This document shows, one piece after another, positions 9,102-63,160 of a stretch of 64,000 bases of DNA. Source of the stretch: Escherichia phage phiWec177. The first letter of the stretch is position 1. The number at the start of each line of letters is the position of its first letter. Where the stretch lies: the sequence record LC739532.1; one strand, given 5' to 3'. The notes below the pieces were generated by a model. The model was not told the DNA's origin and did not search any database. It saw only the letters and a program-made list of their open reading frames with translations. The position numbers were made by a program, and so were the translations under genes.

Positions 9102-9617
9102 TCAACTTAGTTTTGCAAACTCTCCGTGGAGTTTAATAGCAGCTTCACAGTAAGCTTTATGGGCTTCTTCTTCTGTTGTGTATGTCCCTATATGTATAGT
9201 CTTGCCATTATGGTTAATCTGGGCTTTCCACTTACCAGACTTACTTCTACTTGTACCTTTTAAGTTTTTTGATGTTCTAGGTTGTCTCCTATTAGACATG
9301 TTCTGTTCTTTTGTGGCCTCTCTTAGATTGTCCCAAGCGTTATTCAAACCATCTCCATCTTTGTGGTCAATTTGCTTATCAGGCCACTTGCCTGTCATCC
9401 AGAACCAAGCAATTCGGTGATTGCCTGTCCTGTATCCTAAAATCTGTGTGTGCATATACACACCAGACCTTGTGCGCTTAATTGCTCCGGCTTGGCTTCC
9501 AATAACCACCCTACTACTGTGTGGAGGTCTACCAATCCATGTTAAGACCCCTGTTTCGGGGTCATAATCTAACCAAGATTTTAACTGTTCATGTGTGAAT
9601 CCACAATCTCTCATCAA
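9102..9617 (-). CDS. HNH homing endonuclease (HNH plus AP2-like DNA-binding region)
   Basis: 171 aa; H..QIDHKDGDGLNNAWDNLREATKEQN HNH core; C-terminal GKWKAQI...GTYTTEEEAHKAY AP2-like; paralog of 32513-33004; overlaps polymerase stop by 4 nt. Confidence 0.75.
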   Translation of the reverse strand: MMRDCGFTHEQLKSWLDYDPETGVLTWIGRPPHSSRVVIGSQAGAIKRTRSGVYMHTQILGYRTGNHRIAWFWMTGKWPDKQIDHKDGDGLNNAWDNLREATKEQNMSNRRQPRTSKNLKGTSRSKSGKWKAQINHNGKTIHIGTYTTEEEAHKAYCEAAIKLHGEFAKLS

Positions 9618-10170
9618 TGTACCTCATACCACGACTTACCAACCTTTGCTGTACCAGTTACAAGTGTTTCTTTCCTCAAACCTAAGTTTTTTGAAGCTTG
9701 TCCATACATCCAGTCAGCAATTGCTTTCATATCCTGTGTCATACCCTCTGGACATTCCCAACTATTTTCATCGTGATATGCCAGAAGCAACCTTGCTCCG
9801 ATAGCTGGTTTTCGAGCATTCAGTTTTGTCAGGCCATCTTCACAGGCTTTTCTTGCTGCAAGGTTGATGGCCTCATTCTGAATCTGTGCTTCCGAACTCA
9901 TCAGGAGGTAGTTCAGTAGTTTATGTGGAGATTTGCACCATATCCATGCTCCAGCGACCCTGATATAACCACCTTTAGCAATTGAAGAATTCTTCCCAAA
10001 AACCTCTTCCAGAGCCTTTTTAGACGCCTTAAAATCGGCTTCTAAGCTATCAAGTAACTTCTTAATCTTTGGCAGACGCATATAGTAAGTTTGTTTAGTC
10101 AATGCACCTTCTTCCGTAGATGATGCCTTGATAGTTTTTGCAAACTTCTCGTCTCCAGCCCCGAACAATA
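9614..10170 (-). CDS. DNA polymerase (family A), exon 2
   Basis: Begins inside motif B (LFGAGDEK...) and contains motif C (LLLAYHDE); joins exon 1 to give ...KNGIYALLFGAGDEK. Confidence 0.8.
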
Positions 10171-10438
10171 CATCTGGTCAATACACTCGCAAGGTGTACC
10201 AGTTCTCTTATGAACTTCTCCGCATTTCTACGGAGTGTCGGACTATATCACGTAGTAGTAATACTACCGTTGCACTTGGGGATGGTCATTAGCTTACCAC
10301 CCTACTCTACTCAGTTCATACGTTAAGTATGCTTTTCGATAGTCTCTGAACGTTCCTCTTAAGAGGCTTCGCTGCTGATTACCATATCTTTACAGACTTA
10401 GGCTTCCAGCAATTCACAACGTTTTACATGCGCCACTG
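10171..10438 (-). mobile_element. group I self-splicing intron (ORF-less) in DNA polymerase
   Basis: Sense strand shows the P/Q/R/S core elements (AATTGCTGGAAG, AATCAGCAGCG, GTTCAGAGACTATC, TGATATAGTCC), an internal guide GCGCAT pairing with exon end ATGCGT with U:G at the splice site, and a 3' terminal G. Confidence 0.8.
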
Positions 10439-12581
10439 ACGCATAAATGCCATTTTTGCTCTTCTTACGACCTTTTGTAATCTCATGAAGAAGTTCCTCA
10501 TCCTGTGTCTCCCTACAACGAACAATATCTTCTTCCTTGTTCAGACCAAAGTAAATACTGTTAAGTGTATGCGCATCAGTACCTGTGTAGACTTCATACA
10601 AATCATTATCAGCATCGTAACGACAATATTTATCAGCCTCTGGATTTAGGTACTTATCAAGATGCTTGCAGTAGTATCGTCCATCATCCTGTTTAGTGAA
10701 CTCTACAAACTCTTTACCTTCAGTTACCGCTTTGGTGAAGTCTTTATCACCCATAAAGTTACACAGTAAAACAAGCTGTGCAGAGTTCTGGTCAACTGAA
10801 ACGATATTAGTCCCTTCCTCACAAATCCACACCTCCCTCATAGGCGCTCCATAGACAGCAGCACCAGATGGTACGTTTACAATACCATATTGTGTCATAC
10901 GTCCAGTTGAAGTGCCAAACACCATTGCACCAGCACTAAGGCGACCATCAGGACGAATCTGGTTCAACCAACCTTTTTCATCATCCTTTGAGTTCTCAAT
11001 AGTTCTGCGTCGGTGCATCAAAGTATAGTACTTAGCAATCTTCTGTCCAAGCTCACCTTCAATCGTATCATAAGATGACTCAGTAAGTTTTGGTGAAGTA
11101 CGGATTAAGCAAGGCTCAAGCAAATCTGTGTATTTCTTCACAGACCAGTTATGCTCAATGTACTGTACACCTTCATGCTCAACATAGCTCAAACCACACC
11201 GCTCAACCATTTCCTGCCACTTAGGATGCTTTGTAATCATCTTTTTATTGTCTTTGAAACGACAAACTTTGACAGGGCGACCGTCTGAGTCTTTCTTGTA
11301 GTTCCAGTCATCTGGAATCCAACCAACTGATTTCAAGTAGTCTTTAACAACTGCTACCTGAGTCATGCGAGAAACTTCGAACTCAATTGGTGTATATGGT
11401 GCATCAATCAAACCTGTGTAGCGACTTGACTCAAGTTCAAAGTGGTTAACAACGTGGCTGTTATAGTACTTCACAGTTTTGACTGTTTTTACTGGCTTCC
11501 AGTCTTTGCACTTCTTACCAATCTTTGCATTCAACTCATTGCAAATTGCACGAGCATCCTTCATTGCTACAAAACCTTCCTTGTACTCTTCACCAGTTAC
11601 AGAGTTGGTTGGTGTATAGCAATTTCTTTTTTCAATGTTAAAAATCTTTGTAGTTGGCTTACCAAATGGCTTGATTTCGTATGTCTGCATCTCACCGTTA
11701 CGCACCTGCTGACGATACTTTGTTTTAGGGTACTTGGTAATTCTTTTCAGTCCATCTGCATGACCAAATGTTTCAACATACTCATTCCAAGCTTTTGCAA
11801 ACTCTTCTCCAGTCACTTTACCTTTGGTCTTAATAGTTGGAGGTAGATGTGGTTCAACCTCTGAAGCAAGCTCATTAGTCAACTTGTCAAGTTCCTTTAC
11901 ATGGAACTCCATAAGCTCTTTATCAGCTTTCCAACCATTGATAGCTTGTTGACTCATCCAGAAAGATGTTTCTTTAGCTCGCATGTAAGTTTCATAAGTG
12001 TCTATACCACACTTCTTAAGCTTGAGATACTCGTTATCAAGTGCCCGTTTAGTTTTGGCGTTAATACGGATATCTTCTACAACACGAGTGAAGATTTCTG
12101 CATTCCACACACCCCAATGTTCAATCTCTGGCTTACGAACACCAACACGAGCACCCCATGCAGCCAAACCATGAGCACCTTTATAACCCTTTGGAGTTGG
12201 TCTATCCATCCACTGAACACGAGACTGGATAAGAGAATCCTGAAAGAAATTACTCCACGGCTTACATTTTGGATTATCAAAGTTCCATAAATCAGGTGCA
12301 ATGTGATTGAAGACCCACCAGTCATAACCGAGACCGTTATGGATGCAAAGACGTTTTGCCTTTAACGCAAATTCAACACCTTCACGTAAACCACCCTTAA
12401 TGTACTTGGTATACTTGTGACCGAGGATAGGCTCATCTGTAAAGACCCATACAGGTGGCTCTTCATCGTCAGATTTATAGTCTGCGAAAGCCATTACGTG
12501 CACTTTAGTGAACTCAAGGAGTAAACCATCAGTTTCTGTATCACCAACCAAATGTAAGTTCTTAAAATCTACGTTTTCCAT
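10439..12581 (-). CDS. DNA polymerase (family A), exon 1 (3'-5' exonuclease plus polymerase N-part)
   Basis: VGDTETDGL Exo I motif; motif A VSVDQNSAQLVLL; ends within motif B (...RKKSKNGIYA); track ORF reads through into intron to a stop at 10398. Confidence 0.85.
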
Positions 12582-25776: not shown

Positions 25777-26973
25777 ATGAACAAAGTACAGATTATTAAA
25801 AAGAATGGCTCACTTGAAGAACCTGATATCAAAAAAGTTTTAGCAGCAGTAACTAAGTCAGCTAACAGGGTTGGATATAAAGAACTCCCACCAGATGTTA
25901 CCCAAGCTCTTGAGTCAGCATTTATGAGGATTCTGGTAAAGTCCACTAAGCAGAATAATTTGCTGATTTCTGTAAATGATATTCACAGTATTGTTGAGGG
26001 TGCTTTGGCAGAAGTCAATCACGAGATTTATGAGTCTTACTCAACATATAGAAATTACCGTAAAGAAGTTGCTCAAAATTGGGATGAACTCTACCAGAAG
26101 ACCAAAGATACACTCTTCTTAGGCGACAGAGAGAATGCTAACTTTGACAGCAGTTTAATTTCTACAAAAGGTTCAATTATTCGTGGTTATCTGACTAAAG
26201 AAATCTTTAAGCAGTACCACTTAACACCAGAGGAACTTGAAGCCATTGAAAAAGGGTTTATCTACATCCATGACTTAAGAGACCTAATTTTTGGTGGTAT
26301 CAACTGTTGTCTGTTTGACATCGGTAAAGTACTGAAAGGTGGCTTTGAAATGTCTGGCATTGAATACTGTGAACCAAAGTCTGTGCTGTCGGCCTTACAG
26401 GTTATTGGTGACATAGTTCTTTCAGCAACTGCACAGCAATTTGGTGGTTTTACTTTAGCAGAGATTGATAAGGTACTTGTACCGTATGCTAAGAAGTCTC
26501 TACGCTATCATGCTGAGAAAGCAGCATCTTATGGTATTCCTAAAGAGCATTACCACAATTATGTCATGGAGCAGCTACAGATTGAACTGACTCAAGGTTT
26601 CCAGTCACTTGAAATGAAACTAAACACTGTACCTTGTAGTCGTGGGGATTTTGCATTTACAACTTTGACATTCGGGTTACTTGATTCAGATATGTCCAAT
26701 GAAGATAACCGACTGCAATATATGATTGCAAGTACTCTCCTAGATGTTCGTATGAATGGACAAGGTAAGAGCAAGAAACCTGTTGTATTCCCTAAACTGG
26801 TTTATATTTATGACCAGAAGAGACATAATGAGAATATCTGTCAATGCCACCTGTACAGTAAAGCTATTGAGTGTTGCTCTAAAGCAATGTATCCAGATTT
26901 CTTAAGTGTGTCTGGTCATGGGGCTGTAGCAGAGGCTTTTGAGCGTTCTGGCAAGGTTATTTCGCCGATGGGT
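25777..26973 (+). CDS. nrdD: anaerobic ribonucleotide reductase, exon 1
   Basis: ATP-cone start MNKVQIIKKNGSLE; exon ends ...KVISPMG immediately before in-frame TAA. Confidence 0.85.
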
Positions 26974-27715
26974 TAACAGGCTCTATAGCTCATCTAAAAC
27001 GTGCCTAAACAGGGAAACTCTACATATGTAGACAATCCTGTGCTAAATGATGTACGATGTAAGAAACTATACAACATAGGAGTCTTACATGCCAAACTAT
27101 CACGTCACTGAAGATGGAAAAGTCTTTAGGGAAAATGGTGTAGAGCTTACGCAGTGGAAATCCAACACTGGGTATATGAAAGTGAGGTTTTACGGTAAGA
27201 AGAATCGTGACATGTATGTCCACAGGTTAGTTGCTGAGAAGTATGTACCTAACCCAAATAATCTTCCAATTGTAAAACATAAGGACGATAACAAACTAAA
27301 TAACCACGCATCTAACTTAGAATGGGGTACTCATTCTGAGAATGCTAAAGAAGGTTATGAGAACGGATGCTACAAGTTCCAAAAGCGTTCATATGCCGTG
27401 AAAGCCACACACAAAGTGACAAAGGAAGTTATTGTTGCTAAGTCAATACGAGAGTTATCCAATATACTTGGACACAATCGCAAGACCATCTCTTCAATAT
27501 TGAAGGGTGTGAAAGAGCATAATAACTTTGAGTATGAGTTTGAATACATCTAAATGCCGAACGACTAACCGTGATGAATGTAGCGGTGTAGGGTCAAGCG
27601 ACTCGAAATGGTACGCTACTTAGAAATAAGTAGAAGATATAGTCTGGACTTACTGGCGACAGTAAGCAGCTTGAATAAAGCGGGGTAAGCTTAGCGAACT
27701 TACCTGAACAACAAG
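26974..27715 (+). mobile_element. group I intron in nrdD carrying an HNH homing endonuclease gene
   Basis: Exon 1 ends with U; internal guide GCTCATC near intron 5' end pairs with exon end GATGGGT; S-like element AGAAGATATAGTCTGG; intron ends with G before TGT of exon 2. Confidence 0.75.
27089..27553 (+). CDS. intron-encoded HNH homing endonuclease
   Basis: 154 aa; HKDDNKLNNHASNLEWGTHSEN HNH core. Confidence 0.75.
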   Translation: MPNYHVTEDGKVFRENGVELTQWKSNTGYMKVRFYGKKNRDMYVHRLVAEKYVPNPNNLPIVKHKDDNKLNNHASNLEWGTHSENAKEGYENGCYKFQKRSYAVKATHKVTKEVIVAKSIRELSNILGHNRKTISSILKGVKEHNNFEYEFEYI

Positions 27716-28663
27716 TGTAGAGCATTTTTATCACCATACTATAACGAATATGGTGAAGAGTTTTATGTAGGTCGTGCAAACATTGGTGCTGTATCTTTGA
27801 ACTTACCGATGATTTACCAGTATTCTAAAGAGAATGGTTTAGATTTCTGGAAAGAGCTTGATAAGTACCTAGAAATAATTCGCAGCTTCCACAAGAAACG
27901 CTACGAAATGATTGCTAATATGCCAGCAAGTTCTAACCCTCTTGCATTTACACAAGGTGGTCTGTATAAAGGAACTAAGAATCCTACTGACAGGGTTGGT
28001 TGGGATATTGTGAAGTCCTTCACAGCTTCTTTTGGGGTTACTGCGCTTGATGAGCTATCTGTTCTTGCTGAAGGTAAACGGCTTCATGAAGTTGGAAGCT
28101 GTAGTTTTACATACGATGTTCTGGCATACATTAACATGAAAACTGAAGAGTTTAAAAATGAAGACGGCTTCTTATATGCCGTCTATGGTACTCCAGCAGA
28201 ATCACTTTGCGGAACTCAGCTAAAACAGTTCAGAGATATGTTTGGCGTTATCAAAGGTGTTTCTGATAAGGAATACTTTACAAACAGTTTCCATATGAAT
28301 GTTGCAGCAGACATATCACCATTTGAGAAGCAGGACTTAGAAGAGCCATTCTTCCATATCTGTAGAGGTGGGAGAATCCAGTATGTCAGGGTAGCTAACC
28401 CAGAAAACTTAACAGCACTTAAAAGTTGTATTACCAGAGGGATGTTGAAAGGTTTTTATCAGGGGCTTAACTTTGACTTAGCAATCTGTGAACATTGTGG
28501 TAACAGACCAAAGGCTGATGTTGAAGAATGTGAGGTTTGCCATTCACATGATATCTCTGTGATTAACAGGGTGTGTGGGTATCTTGGATGGACTAAGATT
28601 AAAGGTGAATCCCGAATGAACGATGCAAAAATCGCTGAGATTCGTGATAGAGTCTCTATGTAA
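27716..28663 (+). CDS. nrdD: anaerobic ribonucleotide reductase, exon 2
   Basis: Continues CRAFLSPYYNEYGEE...; C-terminal glycyl-radical site RVCGYLG; track ORF starts at 27797. Confidence 0.85.
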   Translation, partial: CRAFLSPYYNEYGEEFYVGRANIGAVSLNLPMIYQYSKENGLDFWKELDKYLEIIRSFHKKRYEMIANMPASSNPLAFTQGGLYKGTKNPTDRVGWDIVKSFTASFGVTALDELSVLAEGKRLHEVGSCSFTYDVLAYINMKTEEFKNEDGFLYAVYGTPAESLCGTQLKQFRDMFGVIKGVSDKEYFTNSFHMNVAADISPFEKQDLEEPFFHICRGGRIQYVRVANPENLTALKSCITRGMLKGFYQGLNFDLAICEHCGNRPKADVEECEVCHSHDISVINRVCGYLGWTKIKGESRMNDAKIAEIRDRVSM

Positions 28664-32512: not shown

Positions 32513-33004
32513 ATGAATAAGGGTTATTTTGAAAAATACCTAATATATGAACCAGATACAGGTTTATTAATTTGGAGAGTAACCCTTTGCAGTACCGCTA
32601 TTGCTGGTAATGTGGCTGGCACAAGGTCTAAGAAGGGTTATATCCAAGTCCAGATAAATAAGAAGAGGTACTATGCACATAATATTGCATGGATTATGTC
32701 TGGAGGTGAGATACCAAGTGGATATGAGATAGACCACATAGACCTTGATAAAGCTAATAATAAGTTGGAGAATTTAAGACTTAGCACAAAGTCACAAAAT
32801 CAGAGGAATAGGGGTATACACAAGAATAATAAAACTGGTGTGAAGGGTGTAAGTTTTTGTAAACAAACAGGTCTTTACAAAGCAAGAGTCATGCTTTACC
32901 GTAAAGAATACTTTTGTGGAAGATTTAAAACGGTAGAAGAAGCAAAAGAAGCTGTAATTAAAAAGCGAATAGAACTTCATGGTGAGTTTGCAAGACATAA
33001 CTAA
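32513..33004 (+). CDS. HNH homing endonuclease (HNH plus AP2-like)
   Basis: 163 aa; EIDHIDLDKANNKLENLRLSTKSQN; C-terminal AP2-like; paralog of 9102-9617. Confidence 0.75.
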   Translation: MNKGYFEKYLIYEPDTGLLIWRVTLCSTAIAGNVAGTRSKKGYIQVQINKKRYYAHNIAWIMSGGEIPSGYEIDHIDLDKANNKLENLRLSTKSQNQRNRGIHKNNKTGVKGVSFCKQTGLYKARVMLYRKEYFCGRFKTVEEAKEAVIKKRIELHGEFARHN

Positions 33005-59735: not shown

Positions 59736-59812
59736 CTCTGTTTAGCTCAGCTTGGTAGAGCGTTCCGTTTGGGGCGGTAAGGCCGGAGGTTCAAGTCCTC
59801 CAACAGAGACCA
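59736..59812 (+). tRNA. tRNA-Pro (anticodon TGG), tentative
   Basis: Acceptor CTCTGTT/AACAGAG, D-arm GCTC..GAGC, loop TTTGGGG, T-arm GGAGG-TTCAAGT-CCTCC, CCA encoded. Confidence 0.7.
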
Positions 59813-59819
59813 AATTAAT

Positions 59820-59894
59820 GTCGTAGAAGGCAAATGGTTAGCCACCTGACCTTCAATCAGTTGCTCGCGGGTTCGAATCCCGTCTACGACTCCA
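59820..59894 (+). tRNA. tRNA (anticodon TTC, Glu?) tentative
   Basis: Acceptor GTCGTAG/CTACGAC, T-arm GCGGG-TTCGAAT-CCCGT, CCA; anticodon loop CCTTCAA. Confidence 0.6.
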
Positions 59895-59977
59895 AATTTG
59901 ACAGAAGACCAAGTACAGCAAACAACTTTACTTTTCGCGCATAGAAAACTTAAAATTTTGGTCTGGTCATAAAAGTT

Positions 59978-60054
59978 CGCGGGTATAGAGAAAGGGCGTC
60001 TCACATGTCTCATTAGCATGGTATCGGCAGGTTCGACTCCTGCACCCGCCTCCA
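59978..60054 (+). tRNA. tRNA (anticodon CAT; Met or Ile2)
   Basis: Anticodon arm CATGT-CTCATTA-GCATG, T-arm GCAGG-TTCGACT-CCTGC, CCA. Confidence 0.65.
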
Positions 60055-60138
60055 AATTTACAGAAGACCGTTTACAGCAACATTTATTAAATTTTTAGCG
60101 GAAAAAATTGAAAGATACGGTCTGGTAATACTAAACAT

Positions 60139-60214
60139 GGTTAGGAAGCACATAAGGTATGTGCGGTCGCCTGTTAAGCGAATGGCACAGGGTTCGAATC
60201 CCTGACTAACCGCA
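60139..60214 (+). tRNA. tRNA-Asn (anticodon GTT), tentative
   Basis: D-arm GCAC..GTGC, anticodon loop CTGTTAA, T-arm CAGGG-TTCGAAT-CCCTG; 3' end lacks full CCA. Confidence 0.6.
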
Positions 60215-60223
60215 AAATTAAAT

Positions 60224-60311
60224 GTGTCGTTATCCCGTAGATGGTAGCGGTGGGGACTGTAAATCCCTTGTCATTGAGACTCGGTAGGTTCGACTCCTAC
60301 ACGGCACACCA
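60224..60311 (+). tRNA. tRNA-Tyr (anticodon GTA), class II
   Basis: Acceptor GTGTCGT/ACGGCAC, anticodon arm GGGGA-CTGTAAA-TCCCT, long variable arm, T-arm GTAGG-TTCGACT-CCTAC, CCA. Confidence 0.7.
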
Positions 60312-60333
60312 ACACTTAGCGAGATACTTAGTT

Positions 60334-60762
60334 ATGAGAGATGAAGTATACAAATCACAACTTGGTATGAGTTTGGGAACTGCACAAAACAGACTAGTAA
60401 AAGATTTGCTATTCGATTTTATATGTAAGACAAATCAAAATAGATGTTTTCAGTGCGGAAAAGAAATGACTAGGGATGATTTCTCTATCGAGCATAAGAT
60501 TCCGTGGAGACATAGTGAGAATGCAAAAGAGCTTTTCTTTTCACTAGATAATATTTCTTATAGTCATCTTAAATGTAACATGAAAGCAGCAAGACCAGCA
60601 CAGATAAGTGAAAGAAAACATAAAACAATTAAACACGGAACTGCGTATAGCTATTTTAAAGGCTGTAGATGCGATGAGTGTAGGCTGGCTAAGAATGCTG
60701 AGAGTAGAAGAAACTATAGTCCAGAAAGACGTAGGAAGAAGTATCTAAGAAATGGTACATGA
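60334..60762 (+). CDS. HNH endonuclease inside the tRNA array
   Basis: Start at internal Met (MRDEVYK...) of track ORF 60241-60762, whose N-terminal part overlaps tRNA-Tyr; CFQCGKEM...SIEHKIPW...N...HLKCN HNH pattern. Confidence 0.7.
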   Translation: MRDEVYKSQLGMSLGTAQNRLVKDLLFDFICKTNQNRCFQCGKEMTRDDFSIEHKIPWRHSENAKELFFSLDNISYSHLKCNMKAARPAQISERKHKTIKHGTAYSYFKGCRCDECRLAKNAESRRNYSPERRRKKYLRNGT

Positions 60763-60766
60763 ATTT

Positions 60767-60842
60767 GGGGTATTAGTTTAGACGGGTAAAATACGGGATT
60801 GTCTCTCCTGAGCCGCGAGTTCGATTCTCGCATACCTCGCCA
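60767..60842 (+). tRNA. tRNA-Asp (anticodon GTC), tentative
   Basis: Acceptor GGGGTAT/ATACCTC, anticodon arm CGGGA-TTGTCTC-TCCTG, T-arm GCGAG-TTCGATT-CTCGC, CCA. Confidence 0.6.
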
Positions 60843-61270
60843 ATTTTGAGAGGGCTATTTAGCCCCTCCCTTAAAGAGTTCTTACGAGTATTCTTTAAAG
60901 GAGCAGAAGACCAAATTCAGCAAGTTACTTAAAATTTCAAGCCAATTTAATTTTGAAAAATTTAAAACTTGGTCTGGCTCAACAAATTTACAGAAGACCG
61001 TTTACAGCAAAACTTAAACAATCTATTTCTCGGTAAAGAAAAGGCGAAGGTTCGATTCCTTCACTCGGCAGATGTCGAGTTGGTGTAATGGTAGCACTTA
61101 AGATGATAAACAACGGTCTGGTAATTATCTTTGTAGATAAGTTATTAAGCTTACCTGTGAGTATGCGACCACAAAGGGTGAAAGGGTAAATTCTAGATTT
61201 AAACCCAAAAAGGCACATCGCTACAGACCTTAAGCAAGTCTGGGTAGCTTATCTACAAAGATAATTTAAT

Positions 61271-61346
61271 GGAAGTGTAGCAGAATGGTGATGCGGCAGA
61301 CTTTTAATCTGACAGGCGATGGGTTCGAATCCCTCCACTTCTACCA
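61271..61346 (+). tRNA. tRNA-Lys (anticodon TTT)
   Basis: Anticodon loop CTTTTAA, T-loop TTCGAAT, acceptor GGAAGTG/CACTTCT, CCA; T-stem only 3 clear pairs. Confidence 0.6.
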
Positions 61347-61351
61347 AAAAT

Positions 61352-61428
61352 GGTTCAGTCGCAGATAAGGTAATGCAAGGGTCTCATAAGCCCTATGAAT
61401 GTGGGTTCGATTCCCATCTGAACCTCCA
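61352..61428 (+). tRNA. tRNA (anticodon CAT; Met/fMet or Ile2)
   Basis: Acceptor GGTTCAG/CTGAACC, anticodon loop CTCATAA, T-arm GTGGG-TTCGATT-CCCAT, CCA. Confidence 0.7.
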
Positions 61429-61430
61429 AT

Positions 61431-61506
61431 GCTGTGAAAGCACATATGGATGTGCATTCGGCTGATAACCGAAAGGCAGAAGGTTCAAATCCTTCTCACA
61501 GTACCA
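61431..61506 (+). tRNA. tRNA-Ile (anticodon GAT)
   Basis: Acceptor GCTGTGA/TCACAGT, D-arm GCAC..GTGC, anticodon arm TTCGG-CTGATAA-CCGAA, T-arm GAAGG-TTCAAAT-CCTTC, CCA. Confidence 0.75.
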
Positions 61507-61521
61507 ATTTCAATAAAGTTG

Positions 61522-61550
61522 TTGACATTGAGATGTGACTACTTTATAGT
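61522..61550 (+). promoter_or_regulatory. sigma70-like promoter inside tRNA array
   Basis: TTGACA-17 bp-TATAGT. Confidence 0.5.
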
Positions 61551-61754
61551 AACCTTAGTTTTCGTTGCGTAGCGTCTATTTTGCAAATTTAAAATAAATG
61601 CAAACGACAATGTTTTTCTGGCAGTAGCTTGATAGGCTAAACACCAGTGAGGTCTTCCAATCCCTCATCAAAGAATTTGGCGTACTCGCCCACGGTATGA
61701 TTAATAAGGTGGGCATCTTTAAGGGCTTTCTAAGAGAGTCTTTAAAGATAATTA

Positions 61755-61836
61755 CGGGGCGTATCTCAGCTGTCTTCTAAACAGCCGTTAACCGAGTAAG
61801 TGGAGTATGCGGGTTCGAGTCCTGCCGCCTCGACCA
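61755..61836 (+). tRNA. non-canonical tRNA-like element (Arg TCT-like anticodon arm, no clear D-arm)
   Basis: Acceptor CGGGGCG/CGCCTCG, perfect arm GCTGT-CTTCTAA-ACAGC, T-arm GCGGG-TTCGAGT-CCTGC, CCA; only 7 nt between acceptor and anticodon arm, 23 nt before T-arm. Confidence 0.4.
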
Positions 61837-61979
61837 ATTTAGTTAGCAGATTACTTAGACGACCTAAGCGGGTCTTCCTGTAGGGAGGTGGTCTGTATCT
61901 CATGTTTTCAAGAACATGTAAATAATCTGAGAAGGGGCTTTACAGTGTTGAGATAATACGGTAAGCTTCGAATTATAGT

Positions 61980-62062
61980 ATGGGACGATGTTAAGACTCT
62001 AAGGCATGAGCAACGGCCTCCAAAACCGTTTCAAAGGGGTTCAACTCCTCCGTCCCATGCCA
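61980..62062 (+). tRNA. non-canonical tRNA-like element (anticodon undetermined)
   Basis: Acceptor ATGGGAC/GTCCCAT with CCA, T-loop TTCAACT; internal stem AACGG-CCTCCAAAA-CCGTT has a 9-nt loop. Confidence 0.4.
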
Positions 62063-62075
62063 AAGTCTTATTAGG

Positions 62076-62165
62076 GGTAGGTAGCGGCTAATGGTAGCCA
62101 AACTGTCTTGAAAACAGTTGCCACTGTAGAGATACGGTGAGGGTTCGACTCCTTTACTTACCGCC
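62076..62165 (+). tRNA. tRNA-Ser (anticodon TGA), class II
   Basis: 3-bp D-stem, anticodon arm ACTGT-CTTGAAA-ACAGT, about 20-nt variable arm, T-arm GAGGG-TTCGACT-CCTTT; CC only at 3' end. Confidence 0.65.
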
Positions 62166-62423
62166 TAATAAGATTTAATTCCCGCGCTCGTCTAACAAGC
62201 TCGGTTTTTACTCGTGTATTGGCGTACACGGCACGACTATAAAGCACCTAGTAGGTGTCGCGGAGAAGAGATAGTATCAAGCTCTCCAAAGGTTCTAGTC
62301 ACCGGATTAAACAAGACTATGCAAAGACCTTTTTAGGTCTTTTTAGAGGGCTTCTAAGGTTATTACAGCTTGTTGTGGAACCTTGTTGCTTAGGTTCTTA
62401 GAAGTTCTCTAAAAAGGTTTAAT

Positions 62424-62501
62424 GGGAGATTGACGGTAATTGGTAAACCTACCATCCTTAGAAGTTGGTGTTTGAGGGTTCGAATCCCTTGTCTCCCACC
62501 A
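62424..62501 (+). tRNA. tRNA (anticodon TAG?, Leu-like but short variable arm), tentative
   Basis: Acceptor GGGAGAT/GTCTCCC, T-arm GAGGG-TTCGAAT-CCCTT, CCA; anticodon arm has one mismatch. Confidence 0.5.
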
Positions 62502-62508
62502 AATTAAT

Positions 62509-62584
62509 GCAGGTGTAGCAAAATGGTTATGCGGCTGACTCTTAATCAGTAAGACGATGGGTTCAATTCCCTCCACCTGTACCA
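62509..62584 (+). tRNA. tRNA-Lys (anticodon CTT), paralog of 61271-61346
   Basis: Anticodon loop CTCTTAA, acceptor GCAGGTG/CACCTGT, CCA; same weak T-stem as the TTT copy. Confidence 0.6.
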
Positions 62585-62590
62585 AACAAT

Positions 62591-62666
62591 GGGGTCATAG
62601 TTTATATGGTTAAAATTCGAGTTTTGCAAACTTGGGAACTGAGTTCAATTCTCAGTGACTCCACCA
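62591..62666 (+). tRNA. tRNA-Ala (anticodon TGC)
   Basis: Acceptor GGGGTCA/TGACTCC, anticodon arm CGAGT-TTTGCAA-ACTTG, T-arm CTGAG-TTCAATT-CTCAG, CCA. Confidence 0.7.
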
Positions 62667-62672
62667 ATTAGT

Positions 62673-62747
62673 GCATCCATAGTTTAAACGGGAAAATTAC
62701 AGTCTTCCAAACTGAGGTTGAGGGTTCGATTCCCTCTGGATGCTCCA
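62673..62747 (+). tRNA. tRNA-Gly (anticodon TCC)
   Basis: Acceptor GCATCCA/TGGATGC perfect, anticodon loop CTTCCAA, T-arm GAGGG-TTCGATT-CCCTC, CCA. Confidence 0.75.
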
Positions 62748-62753
62748 AATAAT

Positions 62754-62830
62754 GCTGCTTTCGTATAATTGGCTATTACACATCCCTTGTAAGGATGGAG
62801 ATGCGGGTTCAAGTCCTGTGAGCAGCACCA
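62754..62830 (+). tRNA. tRNA-Thr (anticodon TGT)
   Basis: Anticodon arm CATCC-CTTGTAA-GGATG perfect, acceptor GCTGCTT/GAGCAGC, CCA. Confidence 0.75.
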
Positions 62831-62925
62831 ATTCAGAGGTCAAGTGAAAGACCGCTGGTGTCAACTGAAGACCGTAACAAATTCCACGGAGTTGAGTTAG
62901 CGGCACAACTTCAGACCTCTTTCAC

Positions 62926-63000
62926 ACTCGCTTAGTTTATATGGTAAAACATCACCCTTACAAGATGAAGAAAAAGGTTCAAGTCCTTTAGTGAGTACCA
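62926..63000 (+). tRNA. tRNA-Val (anticodon TAC), tentative
   Basis: T-arm AAAGG-TTCAAGT-CCTTT perfect, acceptor ACTCGCT/AGTGAGT, anticodon loop CTTACAA, CCA. Confidence 0.6.
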
Positions 63001-63001
63001 T

Positions 63002-63079
63002 GTTCCAGTATCCCAATTGGCAGAGGATGCAAGCTCAAACCTTGTATTAGTGACGGTTCGAATCCGTCTTGGAACACCA
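63002..63079 (+). tRNA. tRNA (anticodon CAA?), tentative
   Basis: T-arm GACGG-TTCGAAT-CCGTC perfect, acceptor GTTCCAG/TTGGAAC, anticodon arm GCAAG-CTCAAAC-CTTGT, CCA; short variable arm is unusual for Leu. Confidence 0.55.
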
Positions 63080-63084
63080 ATTTT

Positions 63085-63160
63085 GCAGGATTAGTTCAAA
63101 TGGATAGAGCAACAGTCTACGAAGCTGTTAATAGGGGTTCGAATCCCTTATCCTGCGCCA
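63085..63160 (+). tRNA. tRNA-Arg (anticodon ACG)
   Basis: Acceptor GCAGGAT/ATCCTGC perfect, anticodon arm ACAGT-CTACGAA-GCTGT, T-loop TTCGAAT, CCA. Confidence 0.75.

Follow-up and report, generated by a model that had tools for sequence, protein, structure and literature searches.

A group I intron within the O-helix of the DNA polymerase gene of Escherichia phage phiWec177 and its natural variation among Felix O1-like phages

Group I introns have been known in phage DNA polymerase genes since SPO1, and in coliphages since PhiI and W31 (PMC3428280, PMC3984707). In family A polymerase genes, insertion sites have been published at 674 (SPO1, SP82, Bastille and Pf-WMP3), 676 (phiL7), and 881 (PhiI and W31), and the introns of SPO1, SP82, Bastille and Pf-WMP3 encode the endonucleases I-HmuI, I-HmuII, I-BasI and I-PfoP3I (PMC3428280). 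For the type phage Felix O1, the genome paper states that introns are absent (PMC3185647). Here we analyzed 64,000 nucleotides (nt) of Escherichia phage phiWec177 (sequence record LC739532.1), a stretch referred to below as the window, in which positions 10171-10438 on the minus strand interrupt a Felix O1-like family A polymerase gene in the region encoding its O-helix. We consider it very likely that this segment is a group I intron that is spliced out before translation.

The intron of PhiI and W31 is of the IA2 type, to which the present one is similar in architecture. In both cases an enterobacterial phage has its family A polymerase gene interrupted at a highly conserved catalytic motif, and P6a is the location of the open reading frame (ORF) in PhiI and W31 as it is in the ORF-bearing relatives of the present intron. 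They differ in insertion site, which by E. coli numbering is 881 there and about 764, in the O-helix, here, and in endonuclease, which is of the HNH type in PhiI and W31 and belongs to Endonuclease_7 (PF02945) in Felix O1-type relatives, whereas the copy in the window has no ORF. The group IA2 introns of SPO1, SP82, Bastille and Pf-WMP3 also interrupt family A polymerase genes of phages and have spread between divergent phages, but they lie at site 674 (676 in phiL7), encode nicking HNH enzymes, come from Gram-positive and cyanobacterial phages, and have experimentally characterized self-splicing. The interrupted gene and its intron are laid out as follows.

10439-12581, minus strand: DNA polymerase exon 1, beginning at ATG 12581 and ending ...AUGCGU, 714 codons plus the first base of a Leu codon (ORF list; SP116 junction)
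10171-10438, minus strand: group I intron, 268 nt, without ORF, IA2-like, without P2 (Rfam score, SP116 comparison, structure model)
10398-10400, minus strand: in-frame UAA, 13 codons into the intron (ORF list)
10171, minus strand: terminal G of the intron, the 3′ splice site (junction comparison)
9614-10170, minus strand: DNA polymerase exon 2, beginning UA UUG UUC... and ending with the stop TGA 9616-9614 (ORFs; partial Pfam DNA_pol_A; T7 and Taq alignments)

A covariance-model scan, proposed as a check in a preliminary description of this locus made from the letters alone, was run on the whole 64-kb window and matched the group I intron model RF00028 at 10501-10218 on the minus strand, covering model positions 1-253 with 63.8 bits (gathering score 50; E=7.4e-14). 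This was the sole non-tRNA Rfam match above threshold. The boundaries are given by Salmonella phage SP116, which lacks the intron and has its polymerase as a single uninterrupted coding sequence (CDS): SP116 aligns to position 10441 and again from 10168, with 4 nt in place of 272 nt, a net insertion of 268 nt in the window that matches the interval 10171-10438 originally proposed. Around the site, 9 silent differences fall within 22 nt between the window and SP116, the gene being otherwise about 95% identical. Exon 1 ends in ...TTTATGCGT, its last bases being ATGCGT and its final base 10439; the intron then reads CAGTGGCGCATG... to ...CCAGATG from 10438 to 10171, where base 10171 is the terminal G that had been predicted; and exon 2 starts with TATTGTTCGG. 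The intron ends are the same in every length form found by locus comparison. No sense-strand ORF of at least 40 amino acids (aa) was found within the intron, in agreement with its description as ORF-less, and the window copy is not a mobile group I intron with an endonuclease gene of its own.

Removal of the intron restores the polymerase. Unspliced RNA would give a truncated product of 727 aa through the UAA at 10398-10400, corresponding to the ORF at 12581-10398 on the minus strand with the C-terminus ...KNGIYASVAHVKRCELLEA*, and the remainder of the gene is listed as a mechanical ORF of 184 aa at 10168-9614 on the same strand with the N-terminus (L)FGAGDEK. When the exons are joined, the frame stays open for 899 codons and reads ...GRKKSKNGIYALLFGAGDEKF..., with the same residues as SP116 at that point. 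At the junction the spliced family A polymerase of 899 aa reads ...KNGIYALLFGAGDEK..., and the predicted peptide spanning the junction is NGIYALLFGAGDEK. The spliced C-terminal region aligns with residues 517-621 of T7 DNA polymerase, which contain motif B, as TRDNAKTFIYGFLYGAGDEK against GRKKSKNGIYALLFGAGDEK (phmmer, E ~3e-5), and Taq polymerase aligns around the motif A region and the HDE of motif C (phmmer). Motifs A, B (O-helix) and C of a family A DNA polymerase were thus located through the T7 and Taq alignments; the Pfam DNA_pol_A model on exon 2 alone gave 25.8 bits, below its cut-off of 34.3. The T7 alignment and the uninterrupted SP116 relative bear out the proposal that the polymerase is split within motif B, and the continuous frame with the SP116 residues at its junction bears out that splicing would restore this motif.

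By alignment, the insertion splits the Leu codon that corresponds to T7 F528 after its first base. T7 Y526 and Y530 are established counterparts of F762 and Y766 of E. coli Pol I, which places the intron at Pol I L764, in the middle of the O-helix. None of the three published sites in family A polymerase genes (674, 676 and 881) coincides with ~764, which makes it the fourth.

Many GenBank records annotate two polymerase CDSs, and the mechanical ORF of the window starts at TTG 10168, as would be expected if the polymerase consisted of two polypeptides (727 aa and about 184 aa) assembling without RNA splicing. We regard this as highly improbable. The break would fall inside the O-helix between its two key aromatic residues; TTG 10168 is merely the second Leu codon of LLFG, with no in-frame start, and the AUG formed from the last three bases of the intron is out of frame. 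The start of the second CDS is placed differently across records, close relatives have the same residues in one uninterrupted protein, and the intervening RNA is, by its Rfam match, a genuine group I ribozyme.

The 3.7 kb around the intron are 100% identical to those of Escherichia phages phiWec172 and phiWec174 (LC739530, LC739531), and more than 200 Felix O1-like phages (Felixounavirus) from Salmonella, Escherichia, Shigella and Citrobacter show 90-96% identity over this 3.7-kb region. The polymerase region is present in 259 GenBank records, 96 of which contain at least 80% of the intron in one place. These data bear on whether the interruption could be an assembly artefact or the intron a decayed relic that no longer splices, as its small, compact form and its lack of an endonuclease ORF might suggest. 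phiWec172 and phiWec174 are two independent records with the identical sequence, and at least 10 further isolates, from several countries, have near-identical 268-nt copies. The elements of the catalytic core are all intact and conserved, and the gene is essential in phages that are viable isolates; a relic or an artefact is accordingly very unlikely, and a splicing intron remains our reading.

For the RNA structure, we wrote an explicit manual secondary-structure model and checked its pairs, all 79 of which are canonical from P1 to P10. The elements are as follows.

10428-10444, minus strand: P1, exon AUGCGU (10444-10439) with guide GCGCAU (10433-10428), U.G at the 5′ splice site, loop CAGUG (model, exon conservation)
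10166-10170, minus strand: P10, exon 2 UAUUG with intron CAGUG 10438-10434 (model, allele comparison)
10373-10421, minus strand: P3 5′ strand (10421-10415, 7 bp) and P4-P5-P5a domain (10411-10373, GUAA loop) (folding, model, comparison)
10350-10372, minus strand: P6/P6a hairpin CCUC-UUAA-GAGG (comparison, model)
10340-10346, minus strand: P7 5′ strand GAGACUA with a bulged A, forming a pseudoknot with P3 (Rfam, model, comparison)
10280-10331, minus strand: P7.1 (10331-10317) and P7.2 (10302-10280), peripheral hairpins typical of subgroup IA (folding, model, comparison)
10240-10274, minus strand: P3 3′ strand (10274-10268), P8 (10267-10252), J8/7 and P7 3′ strand (10245-10240) (Rfam, model, comparison)
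10175-10235, minus strand: P9 with GAAA tetraloop (10235-10218), P9.1 (10215-10202) and P9.2 (10201-10175) (folding, model, comparison)

The guide is the contiguous CAGUG-GCGCAU at the 5′ end of the intron, and the pairing of GCGCAT with the exon end ATGCGT and U:G at the splice site, noticed earlier, is present in the model. The sequences of the guanosine-binding site, J6/7-P7 GUUCAGAGACUA and J8/7-P7′ GAUAUAGUC, fit the RF00028 consensus with high posterior probability, and unconstrained folding of the intron alone recovers P3, P4, P5/P5a, P7.1, P7.2, P8, P9 and P9.1. P7.1, P7.2 and an ORF in P6a make up the IA2 architecture of the PhiI, W31 and Pf-WMP3 introns (PMC3428280). The present intron has P7.1, P7.2, P9.1 and P9.2, its relatives have their ORF in P6a, and P2 is absent from the model.

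Several points weigh against this interpretation. The z-score of the whole-intron folding energy is only -2.1, and P10 is short, with 5 bp including two G.U pairs. The Rfam alignment puts P1 into the exon, so that P1 and P10 rest on the manual model and exon conservation, and the intron is called IA2-like from architectural resemblance.

Comparison with other introns is consistent with the fold. Among members of the genus, P6a closes with C-G in the 268-nt form and with U-A in the long forms; one P8 pair alternates between U-A and C-G, and one P7.2 pair changes from G-C to G.U. The closest introns outside the genus interrupt the RNA polymerase gene of N4-like phage vB_EcoP-ZQ2 (L063) and the terminase genes of Vibrio phage 11895-B1 (L066) and Acinetobacter phage Herod (L067), with Rfam scores of 91.8, 82.3 and 78.8 bits, respectively, all above threshold; the ZQ2 intron is 72.8% identical over 78% of the window intron. 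All three share a core with conserved J3/4-P4, J6/7-P7 and J8/7 and a GAAA-capped P9. They keep all core helices, with both-sided changes in P3, P5, P5a, P6, P6a, P7, P7.2, P8 and P9, and a G-C to A-U change in Herod supports the outer P7 pair. The preliminary description had recognized the group I core elements in this interval, which now stand in a model complete from P1 to P10, and related introns show covariation in its helices. These three introns differ from the present one in host gene and phage family, and in ZQ2 an ORF with HNH_3 and AP2 domains lies downstream of P9.

The comparison with the distant introns was made helix by helix between conserved anchors, in a register of our own, and not by automatic alignment. 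A MAFFT alignment that included them was discarded, with P7.1-P8 and the P3 3′ strand misaligned. The ZQ2, 11895-B1 and Herod introns adjoin or contain HNH or other endonuclease ORFs. Part of the core was also found by BLAST, in a different context, in the polymerase locus of crAss-like cr3_1 (L064), which has a GIY-YIG ORF, and the core is shared in part by BLAST in the polymerase locus of Flavobacterium phage Fpv20 (L068); neither gave an Rfam match above threshold.

Splicing is to be expected, since the isolate is viable and its polymerase is essential. Judging from the sequence, the intron RNA itself would be the catalyst. The pre-mRNA would fold so that the guide CAGUG-GCGCAU pairs with both exon ends, in P1 and P10; free guanosine bound in P7 would attack after the exon-terminal U (10439), and the freed exon 1 would then attack after the terminal G (10171). 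This would join ...AUGCGU to UAUUG..., and the 899-aa polymerase would be translated from the product.

To place the window copy among its relatives, 48 polymerase loci from IMG/VR and GenBank were classified, a few of which are duplicates of the same phage. The site occurs in the following states.

Empty site, 0 nt: 25 loci, including SP116
ORF-less intron, 268 nt: the window, L27, Meda, SPJ41, REP7, REP10 and others
ORF-remnant intron, 311 nt: Mushroom
Frameshifted-ORF intron, 780 nt: VpaE1
Intact-ORF intron, 801-805 nt: GEC_vB_B1, JH2, LinBro, BPS15Q2 and others

The long introns have an intact ORF of 160 aa in the P6a loop, inserted between the positions corresponding to 10362 and 10359, and its product belongs to the endonuclease VII family (Pfam Endonuclease_7, PF02945, E=6e-20). 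In VpaE1 (L030), a 22-nt deletion frameshifts this ORF. In Mushroom (L062, 1501-1811), the whole ORF is deleted between flanking imperfect direct repeats, GACTCCTAAAACAAA and GACTACCTAAGCAAA, leaving the 311-nt intron; this form has clearly lost its ORF. ORF-less relatives in other genes have a P6a similar to the short, C-G-closed one of the 268-nt form (Herod GAAGCCUCUUAUUAGAGGAAC), and the 268-nt form may never have held an ORF.

The intron family has, from its sequences, moved laterally among Felix O1-like polymerase alleles. Loci that share only 65-77% identity in exon DNA 30-300 nt from the intron have introns with 96-100% identity, and the 30 nt adjoining the intron are 83-93% identical between the same loci. 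The 11 exon bases that pair with the guide, ATGCGT|TATTG, are fixed in all intron-containing alleles (the P1 exon bases are the same in 23 of 23 such loci) and differ in 25 of 25 empty alleles. The empty alleles are mostly GCA/GCC-CTG/CTA-YTR, with no U at position -1, and the closest of them, at L020, is one base off ATGCGT|TATTG. This pattern probably reflects short co-conversion tracts together with selection for P1/P10 pairing. The ORF-containing form occurs in four exon 2 allele classes, and the 268-nt form in one (e2.0) save for one recombinant, which is compatible with the former homing actively and the latter being passed on passively. The window copy, without an endonuclease and in a single exon 2 lineage, was most likely inherited passively.

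The polymerase gene is strongly mosaic around this site (window ~9614-10740 compared with loci L001-L080). Most members of the genus share about 85-98% identity in the segment 300-1000 nt upstream of the site. By contrast, at least 11 allele classes can be distinguished in the 300 nt before the site and at least 15 in the whole of exon 2 (92% identity cut-off; 65-80% between classes). This suggests repeated gene conversion around two endonuclease-associated sites.

The polymerase is followed by a further gene.

9102-9614, minus strand: free-standing endonuclease gene with HNH_3 and AP2 domains, type A (Pfam; overlap; presence/absence survey)

The listed ORF extends from 9617 to 9102 on the minus strand (171 aa), but its TTG at 9617 is only a mechanical ORF start. 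The likely ATG, at 9614-9612, overlaps the polymerase stop TGA 9616-9614 as TGATG, with GAGG 7 nt upstream, which corroborates the overlap seen in the preliminary description. In relatives, the position behind the polymerase is vacant or holds any of seven genes of this kind, with 39-91% identity among them, and the HNH-AP2 gene is a free-standing mobile cassette in its own right, independently present or absent. A paralogous endonuclease gene of the HNH_3-AP2 type, 30-38% identical to the polymerase-adjacent types, was found on the plus strand of the window at ~32513-32995.

With 557 nt between the insertion site and the HNH gene downstream, the two are adjacent as in a collaborative or trans-homing pair. 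Experimental precedents exist for such pairs (PMC2790892; review PMC3984707). The T4 nrdB intron, with a defunct I-TevIII, was shown experimentally to be mobilized in trans by the free-standing HNH gene mobE (PMC2790892). As at the present locus, an intron unable to mobilize itself adjoins a free-standing HNH gene reliant on upstream expression signals, the HNH start here overlapping the polymerase stop; the difference is that trans-homing is experimental in T4, and here the population data neither require nor exclude it. In cyanophages, an ORF-less psbA intron and the free-standing F-CphI undergo collaborative homing (Zeng et al. 2009, reviewed in PMC3984707), in which the endonuclease cuts the intron-less insertion site, a target that the empty-site data argue against at our locus.

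The ORF-less intron might accordingly be maintained or spread in trans by the adjacent HNH-AP2 endonuclease, an addition to the splicing interpretation that concerns mobility only and that we consider unlikely. Possible routes would be co-conversion after a cut near the 3′ end of the polymerase gene (trans-homing) or cleavage of the insertion site itself (collaborative homing). Besides the position of the HNH gene, co-occurrence speaks for it: among non-duplicate loci, 10 of 10 ORF-less or remnant introns were accompanied by an HNH gene of type A, B or C, compared with 4 of the 10 introns with an ORF that were taken from the same intron-ranked list (Fisher p=0.011). Intron presence overall was unassociated with the HNH gene, which was found at 12 of 16 loci with the intron and 13 of 22 without it (p=0.49). 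Co-occurrence with the ORF-less form is also confounded by lineage, because e2.0 loci always carry the HNH gene, intron or not (13 of 13, including 4 without intron), and 9 of the 10 268-nt introns are in e2.0. Furthermore, the same empty-site sequence, GCA CTG CTG TTC GGT, occurs both with HNH type A (L007, L022) and without an HNH gene (L013, L014), which argues against cleavage of the insertion site by the HNH enzyme.

The association between the HNH gene and ORF-less introns (initially p=0.008 and p=0.011) was therefore set aside as confounded by one exon 2 allele, and is kept as a lead only. The preliminary description had called the arrangement compatible with collaboration between intron and endonuclease; adjacency and the 10 of 10 co-occurrence agree with this, but the association follows lineage, and collaboration is weakly supported and not established. 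It is likewise doubtful, although conceivable, that the loci form a population snapshot of a whole homing cycle at an undescribed site 764, in which the ORF-less intron would persist by co-conversion with the HNH-AP2 gene (trans-homing) and the endonuclease VII form would spread alone.

The polymerase intron had already been noticed by annotators of relatives, and it is otherwise an uncharacterized member of a well-known class of phage introns. In the GenBank record of Meda, the polymerase CDS is joined from two pieces, possibly at the same junction as here. An exact look-up of the predicted spliced proteins of Meda and the window gave no match. The SPJ41 paper gives 'two introns' among its non-coding RNAs, the BASEL collection paper annotated intron boundaries by comparison, and one Felix O1-like literature match mentions only 'homing endonucleases inserted into genes'. 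Our literature searches gave no paper describing the Felix O1-like polymerase intron. What is mildly new is where the intron is inserted, which endonuclease family its relatives carry and how rich the natural polymorphism is; the present understanding of group I introns is unchanged.

For annotation, a single joined CDS of 899 aa should be given for the polymerase, which appears in phiWec172 and most relatives as two proteins or as hypothetical proteins; in the phiWec records the genes in question are hypothetical proteins. An endonuclease VII-family homing enzyme is added to the mostly HNH enzymes of polymerase introns. Across hundreds of close genomes the site is empty or holds an intron that is ORF-less or has a remnant, frameshifted or intact ORF, and the free-standing HNH cassette beside it is polymorphic, which makes this locus a convenient natural system for intron gain, endonuclease loss and possible trans-homing in phages for the biocontrol of Salmonella and E. 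coli.

A second group I intron, of 742 nt, was observed at 26974-27715 in the anaerobic ribonucleotide reductase gene nrdD (25777-28663, plus strand), where it holds an HNH ORF of 154 aa (27089-27553). As this ORF divides the core, the Rfam match is limited to the 3′ half of the intron (27486-27666, 33.1 bits, below threshold). In the spliced product, ...SPMG would be followed directly by CRAFLSPYYNEYGEEF..., and relatives show full, ORF-less (~426 nt shorter) and intron-less (~742 nt shorter) states. In the literature the gene is termed only 'split nrdD' (PMC4837284). Felix O1-like polymerase and nrdD regions, about 95-99% identical to the window, were also found in GenBank MG065664 and MG065668 ('Campylobacter phage A132' and 'A126'), whose Campylobacter labels are probably due to mislabelling or contamination. 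On the plus strand at 59736-63157, the window contains a cluster of 17 tRNA genes, which is typical of Felix O1-like phages. The tRNA gene at 62076-62163 is long and has a weak tRNA-Sec-like match as well, and a tmRNA-like match at 61564-61753 (16 bits) is probably due to chance.

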